Source of the DNA: Camelus dromedarius
Taxonomy: Eukaryota
Direction: 5' to 3'
DNA: 64,000 nucleotides
NCBI RefSeq assembly: GCF_036321535.1
Contig: NC_087436.1
Coordinates: forward strand, 19,346,001-19,410,000
Shown one piece after another: positions 51,977-52,081 of this stretch (positions are counted from its first letter, which is position 1; every line of letters starts with the position of its first letter). The notes beneath the pieces are model-generated. The model had not been told where the DNA came from and did no database searches. It saw nothing but the letters and a program-made list of their open reading frames with translations. The translations under genes were made by a program, and so were the position numbers.

Positions 51977-52081
51977 ATGTCAGGTGGGACCGTGGAAAGT
52001 GTGGAGACGCCCCGCGGATTAAGCGATCGCAGTTTAAGGAGAAAAAAAGCCAAACAAATAAACAGAACCCACCCACCCTAA
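51977..52081 (+). other. Candidate uORF2 (34 aa, [34 protein letters not shown])
   Basis: ATG 51977 (weak context tgcATGt), open to TAA 52079-52081, 5 nt before the main ATG; different frame from the CDS. Confidence 0.6.

Follow-up and report, generated by a model that had tools for sequence, protein, structure and literature searches.

Upstream open reading frames (uORFs) that end in Pro-Pro-stop form a small class. In the leader of the cytomegalovirus UL4 (gp48) gene, uORF2 lies 5′ of the main ORF, begins in a weak start context and ends in Pro-Pro-stop, and its C-terminal residues together with this ending slow termination. The same ending is found in human uORFs of C1orf43, C15orf59, TOR1AIP1, PPP1R37 and ABCB9, as described in the available part of PMC9648851, section 6 of which presents constitutive siphoning of scanning ribosomes as a standard uORF model. 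Constraint on uORF structure without constraint on the peptide is common: according to the available part of PMC13275300, 1,335 of 2,915 catalogued uORFs display ORF-level constraint (ORBLq > 0.9), while PhyloCSF is above 10 in just 74. Members of the ORF-level-only group, such as c8riboseqorf102, retain their start, stop and length and have strongly negative PhyloCSF scores (PMC13275300, available part).

The SLC10A7 leader of Camelus dromedarius contains a uORF that can be compared with both. Within the 64-kb stretch of DNA that was analyzed (the window), this ORF, designated uORF2, terminates immediately before the SLC10A7 start codon (Table 1). Its position, codon number, peptide, stop codon and spacing to the main AUG, as given in a first-pass annotation, were all borne out, as were the weak context of its AUG (C at -3, T at +4) and the two prolines preceding the stop, which are present in camel and human. 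The uORF2 AUG and stop are both located fully 5′ of the main AUG within one first exon, and the main AUG has an A at -3. uORF2 thus resembles UL4 uORF2 in start context, Pro-Pro-stop and location, but it is 34 rather than 22 codons long and is only a candidate for stalling. Its pattern resembles that of the structurally constrained type, with start, stop and length apparently retained and a strongly negative PhyloCSF score. The identity of the gene is clear from the exon-1 peptide, which over the matched stretch is 100% identical to Camelus dromedarius SLC10A7 (P0006) and 97% identical to that of Vicugna (P0054); the 501-nt uORF2 locus has a single match in the 2.3-Gb assembly.

Table 1. Features of the SLC10A7 first-exon region and of the surrounding window (positions are those of the window).
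Feature	Coordinates	Strand	Description
CpG island, SLC10A7 promoter and first exon	51001..52250	.	GC 0.54-0.66, CpG o/e 0.75-0.93 (four 500-nt windows with starts 51001 to 51751)
uORF1	51856..51963	+	35 codons, strong-context AUG, in frame with SLC10A7 CDS
CTG at Leu11 of uORF1	51886..51888	+	91 nt 5′ of uORF2 AUG; counterpart of CHO CUG start (92 nt)
uORF2	51977..52081	+	AUG-initiated (ATG 51977-51979), 34 sense codons, frame +1 relative to SLC10A7 CDS, ends Pro-Pro-TAA (52079-52081); sequence reading
A/C-rich, T-poor tract (uORF2 3′ half and 5-nt gap)	52031..52086	+	54% A, 9% T
Gap from uORF2 stop to main AUG	52082..52086	+	5 nt
SLC10A7 exon 1 coding part	52087..52186	+	ATG at 52087, GT donor at 52187
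tRNA-like SINE copies	1615-1807, 2798-2934, 9600-9718, 14897-14987, 15749-15895, 19038-19151
tRNA-like SINE copies, further	26701-26827, 34504-34646, 36449-36549, 48264-48388, 54900-55046

Judged from the camel sequence alone, uORF2 is only mildly unusual. Dinucleotide shuffling of a 247-nt leader generated a uORF of at least 34 codons in 337/2000 cases and a uORF of at least 20 codons ending no more than 10 nt from the main ATG in 58/2000; for a 147-nt leader the corresponding counts were 61/2000 and 62/2000. Both the basic cluster and the Pro-Pro of uORF2 can be attributed to the A/C-rich tract: the uORF2 frame specifies 8 Lys and Arg residues in 34 codons, and the same DNA read in the CDS frame specifies 10 in 33 codons, with Pro-Pro too. 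RNA structure was rejected as the conserved feature, because the leader (51840-52110) folds at the level of shuffled sequences (z 0.05; 103/200 shuffles as good). RNA runs from two studies contained 0.44-0.66 of the sampled words of 51600-52200 in unplaced reads, a share exceeding what the 100-nt SLC10A7 coding part alone could give; two pig-labelled RNA runs, with reads likewise unplaced, shared 0.05 of the words and do not count as evidence. Elsewhere in the window, a short SINE of tRNA-like type whose tails are AT-rich is present at 11 or more places; we take it to resemble the camelid Vic-1 SINE.

The counterpart of uORF2 in human is the GENCODE Ribo-seq uORF c4riboseqorf106 (chr4:146521723-146521827, minus strand; PMC10032668 supplementary file 2, row 5107), which was the only SLC10A7 row returned from that table. 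It shares with camel uORF2 the gene, the uORF biotype, a length of 105 nt and 34 aa and the Pro-Pro-stop ending. By-eye comparison of the peptides found 28/34 identical residues, with differences at positions 6, 12, 13, 16, 21 and 30. Those at 21 and 30 are Arg/Lys swaps and are the only differences within residues 17-34; the other four fall within residues 1-16. The statement in the first-pass annotation that the human leader keeps the same ATG, length and stop is therefore confirmed, but its description of the uORF as possibly undescribed is superseded by the catalogue entry. The ORF name class to which c4riboseqorf106 belongs was reserved for replicated ORFs in the first catalogue (PMC13010147, available part). 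The entry itself is not named in the available texts of PMC13275300 and PMC13010147.

A hamster counterpart is present among the ORFs called in CHO cells, in the available part of PMC11452709 (supplementary file 12, row 2875). The Slc10a7 upstream ORF XM_027404908.2_154389703_34aa begins with AUG, is 34 aa and 105 nt long, and has an ORF-RATER score of 0.899 and a good FLOSS classification. It collected 412 CHX reads (158 FPKM, versus 6.3 RNA FPKM), and its harringtonine signal of 0.71 was the highest among the 33 rows compared. The same data set includes a CUG-initiated 19-aa Slc10a7 uORF that starts 92 nt 5′ of the 34-aa uORF. In camel the homologous CTG within uORF1 is 91 nt from the uORF2 AUG, and the part of cricetid uORF1 that begins at Leu11 is also 19 aa long; because of the matching distances, we place the hamster ORF at the same site as camel uORF2. 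The assignment is based on gene, length and position, as the CHO row, unlike the camel data, gives neither a peptide sequence nor a distance to the main AUG. In the CHO file (PMC11452709, available part) 5,710 annotated ORFs were called, and that of Slc10a7 is not one of them; as the list lacks many genes, this supports uORF-dominated initiation weakly. The Ribo-seq check proposed for the human position thus turned up a catalogued, translated uORF, with which the hamster row agrees. The ribosome-profiling support for both initiation and elongation in these published tables demonstrates that ribosomes initiate at the uORF2 AUG and translate its 34 codons in human and hamster. uORF2 is accordingly already known as a translated ORF from human and hamster catalogues; what is added here is that it looks older than its label and is a candidate terminal-diproline uORF.

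The label in question is the age class of Sandmann et al. (PMC10032668), "primatomorpha - young, de novo", which stands against an intact camel copy and the hamster call. In that work ORF structure was traced within primatomorpha only; "conserved" required a median BLASTp E of 1e-8, and "young" denotes a median E weaker than 1e-8 across non-primates. The label is compatible with an older uORF2 because structure was followed only within that group and because 1e-8 is hard to reach for a 34-aa peptide. The length of uORF2 is identical in 3/3 species in which the uORF frame is visible (camel, human and hamster), and two further species are gap-free over uORF2, visible in the CDS frame only and selected for an open frame. 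Simulated drift that ignored the reading frame, run at an assumed indel rate, left the uORF2 structure intact in 0.2-1% of pairs at 0.3-0.4 substitutions/site and in 20% of pairs at 0.10 substitutions/site (~91% nucleotide identity). Drift at 0.10 gave a mean peptide identity of 27.5/34, with at least 28/34 in 52% of runs. The uORF2 region is constrained, and the drift figures alone do not make the ORF the target of that constraint. Taken together, the comparisons suggest that the AUG-to-stop structure of uORF2 predates the primate, rodent and camel lineages and that the age label of c4riboseqorf106 is probably too young.

Selection on the uORF2 peptide, and hence a possible microprotein, had also been proposed in the first-pass annotation. 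This was tested using protein models that read uORF2 DNA in the CDS frame, not orthologous DNA; the comparators were the raccoon-dog SLC10A7 model P0131 (XP_055192435.1) and two further proteins, P0225 and P0124 (the latter for the 5′ half only). P0131 and P0225 start at the uORF1 AUG and extend for 77 codons to the main ATG, gap-free versus camel. The absence of frameshifts in these two is partly built in because such models need an open CDS frame, and they are compatible with a uORF2 AUG and stop that are not directly visible in them. Across the uORF2 span, translation in the wrong (CDS) frame is identical to camel at 31/36 residues in raccoon dog and 30/36 in P0225, as compared to 28/34 for the human and camel uORF2 peptides. 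Between camel and raccoon dog, 5/5 visible changes are open to a reading in which they fall on third codon positions of uORF2, counting as silent one ambiguous change for which the alternative reading is a stop at uORF2 codon 20. This pattern occurred in 20/1,718 frame-blind runs (p ~0.012 for a post hoc statistic) versus 810/3,067 runs at omega 0.1. Replacement changes in uORF2, however, account for 3/6 visible changes in P0225 and 2/2 changed codons in P0124. When pooled, 11 events were distributed over third (6), first (3) and second (2) codon positions of uORF2; an omega of 0.5 fit best but did not differ significantly from neutrality (2dlogL 0.5), and an omega of 0.1 fit worse than neutrality. 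The pooled count excludes the P0124 terminus; were this a genuine stop, one more event would speak against selection. The signal of the raccoon-dog pair was therefore rejected as evidence of peptide selection because it was gone after pooling.

The remaining measures agree. PhyloCSF of c4riboseqorf106 is -297.4 in mammals and -31.7 in primates, the 2023 table lists 0 MS studies (PMC10032668), and 28/34 identity is at the level expected from drift. The exact uORF1 and uORF2 peptides are absent from ~15 billion proteins in an exact look-up. None of the PhyloCSF, dN/dS and proteomics checks that had been suggested supports a selected peptide, and the sequence comparisons leave peptide-level selection on uORF2 unsupported, with room for weak selection on its C-terminal half. 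Of the earlier interpretation, the conserved and translated uORF of the same length in human and hamster is supported; its novelty and the selected peptide or microprotein are not.

The AUG and first ~19 codons of the upstream neighbor, uORF1, are near-invariant from camel to cricetid rodents (predicted ORFs P0124-P0129, P0130, P0133, P0134 and P0140), but its stop varies: some species keep it in the same place, raccoon dog, P0124 and P0225 have a sense codon instead, and cricetid uORF1 is 29 aa long. uORF1 has no row in the human translated-ORF table (PMC10032668), and its AUG is not listed for CHO cells, for which the CUG start inside uORF1 is listed (PMC11452709, available part). The uORF1 AUG is probably located at, or before and near, the main transcript start, and DNA-level constraint would explain its conservation. 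Word searches for short uORF1 homologues returned none, and Pfam returned nothing on uORF1. The promoter DNA within uORF1 includes what we take to be YY1-type and ZNF143/THAP11-type sites, a lead on the constraint. The ZNF143/THAP11-type M4 motif in uORF1 (one match with one mismatch, at 51892) was not accepted and is a lead only, because the window contains 9 such matches versus 13.2 expected.

Where the uORF1 stop is replaced by a sense codon, the frame continues into the CDS (51856-52186, + strand). A conserved SLC10A7 N-terminal extension from the uORF1 AUG was nevertheless rejected, as only 4/199 stored SLC10A7-start proteins have it and the camel frame contains a stop. Its carriers are three raccoon-dog isoforms (P0131, P0138 and P0139) and P0225; the 77-aa extension annotated in raccoon dog is probably an annotation by-product. 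SLC10A7 is not named in the supplements of PMC9789052 that were searched (all except files 4 and 13). Several other features of this region were observed. In camel, 41 stop-free codons of the CDS frame precede the main ATG (51964-52086, +). Two in-frame CTGs, one at 51970 with G at -3 and the other at 51973, lie immediately 5′ of the uORF2 AUG and could support a CUG-initiated extension. A further ATG ORF of 28 codons (51431-51517, +) lies in the CpG island 5′ of the likely transcript start and has a matching Met in one relative, P0132. The uORF1 stop is followed after 13 nt by the uORF2 AUG and after 123 nt by the main AUG (51961-51977, +); on transcripts containing uORF1, re-scanning subunits could speculatively skip uORF2 and reach the main AUG, in which case start-site choice might alter repression.

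We consider it probable, though well short of certain, that uORF2 is a conserved cis-acting repressive uORF that siphons scanning ribosomes and leaves SLC10A7 to leaky scanning, and, jointly, that conservation bears on its start, stop and position, the sequence of the peptide being for the most part incidental. Ribosomes translating uORF2 would terminate 5 nt 5′ of the main AUG, a gap that is presumably too close, after an ORF that is presumably too long, for good re-initiation. Because re-initiation after uORF2 would be poor, synthesis of SLC10A7 would depend mostly on 43S complexes leaking past the weak upstream AUG to the better main AUG, as the first-pass annotation had reasoned; that logic fits the anatomy of a weak upstream AUG, a 5-nt gap and a better main AUG. 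uORF2 would thereby act as a standing brake that keeps SLC10A7, a Ca2+/glycosylation regulator, at a low level, and we infer both its translation in camel and its repressive effect in any species. Re-initiation at short gaps is reportedly poor, a result said to go back to Kozak in 1987 and Luukkonen in 1995. The available part of PMC9648851 cites Kozak 1987 and Luukkonen 1995 for infrequent re-initiation; it also fits 50-75% re-initiation for UL4 uORF2, which counts against the assumption of poor re-initiation.

The repressive reading competes with the view that uORF2 is a passive by-product of an exon conserved for promoter-proximal or RNA-level elements, its frame kept open by the T-poor tract and its translation of little effect. 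The equal conservation of the wrong-frame translations, a CDS frame that is likewise open across 41 codons, the similar conservation of uORF1 despite its variable stop, and the "young" age class of c4riboseqorf106 all point in this direction. On the other hand, the rodent ORF keeps its AUG-to-stop length even though the leader just 5′ of it differs (a 29-aa cricetid uORF1, and spacing off by 1 nt), the CHO initiation signal is strong (PMC11452709, available part), and an AUG that is used in the geometry of uORF2 should divert ribosomes regardless of its origin; we regard a purely passive uORF2 as rather unlikely. A trans-acting function, such as a nuclear or RNA-binding one that relies on the Arg/Lys cluster, is very unlikely. 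Translation at the same length in two clades and the near-identity of the C-terminal half between human and camel would suit such a microprotein, and some uORFs whose amino-acid constraint is ambiguous have been given gene status, as for the GMCL1 uORF (PMC13275300, available part). The PhyloCSF scores, the absence of MS studies, a pooled omega not significantly below 1 and the failure of the exact look-up weigh against it, and the basic residues stem from A-rich DNA that encodes even more of them in the wrong frame. We see no good sign of an independent role for the 34-residue peptide, and such a role is unlikely.

A peptide effect in cis is another rival reading. As a sequence-dependent stalling uORF of the UL4 uORF2 type, uORF2 would slow termination through its C-terminal residues and Pro-Pro-stop; the stalled 80S would cover the main AUG 5 nt away and block scanning 43S complexes, and SLC10A7 output would be buffered when ribosome loading falls. 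Terminal Pro-Pro is rare, being found in 2/1,080, 3/1,517 and 3/3,577 uORFs of three human sets (PMC9648851, available part) and in 2/569 ATG ORFs of the window, and its retention in human and camel, the better conserved C-terminal half and the silent-type changes of the raccoon-dog pair would fit a stall. Several observations make it nonetheless unlikely, if still a tangible alternative: the replacement changes in P0225 and P0124, the pooled omega, and the presence of Pro-Pro in the CDS frame of the same DNA. The CHO footprint/RNA ratio of ~25, computed here from the available part of PMC11452709, ranks 16 among the 33 rows compared and indicates no unusual average pile-up, and PMC9648851 (available part), whose text does not name SLC10A7, tested five human uORFs with a terminal diproline, in which repression persisted without the motif. 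The fullest version of this idea is quite unlikely: that uORF2, common to primates, rodents and laurasiatherians and mislabelled as primate de novo, encodes in its C-terminal half and Pro-Pro-stop an arrest peptide holding a ribosome in place on top of the SLC10A7 start codon, thereby buffering or conditionally tuning a Golgi Ca2+/glycosylation regulator. If true, mammals would have their own native equivalent of the UL4 stall, and variants in the 5′ UTR could be relevant to SLC10A7 disease.

A full-text literature search, with most subscription papers outside its scope, found no functional study of an SLC10A7 uORF. An SLC10A7 row is absent from the supplements of PMC10908861 (all but files 4 and 11) and from those of PMC11473369 (all but files 7, 9, 13 and 14). 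Loss of SLC10A7 leads to skeletal dysplasia with glycosylation defects, according to the available parts of the sources, and a negative correlation links the level of SLC10A7 to store-operated Ca2+ entry (PMC8521665, available part). Because loss of the gene causes disease and its level tracks Ca2+ entry, uORF2, if repressive, would be a place to seek non-coding variants and possibly a handle with which to boost weak SLC10A7 alleles. The result is a modest one, and uORF2 offers a cheap test case; should a Pro-Pro stall prove real, a conserved native example would be added to that small class.
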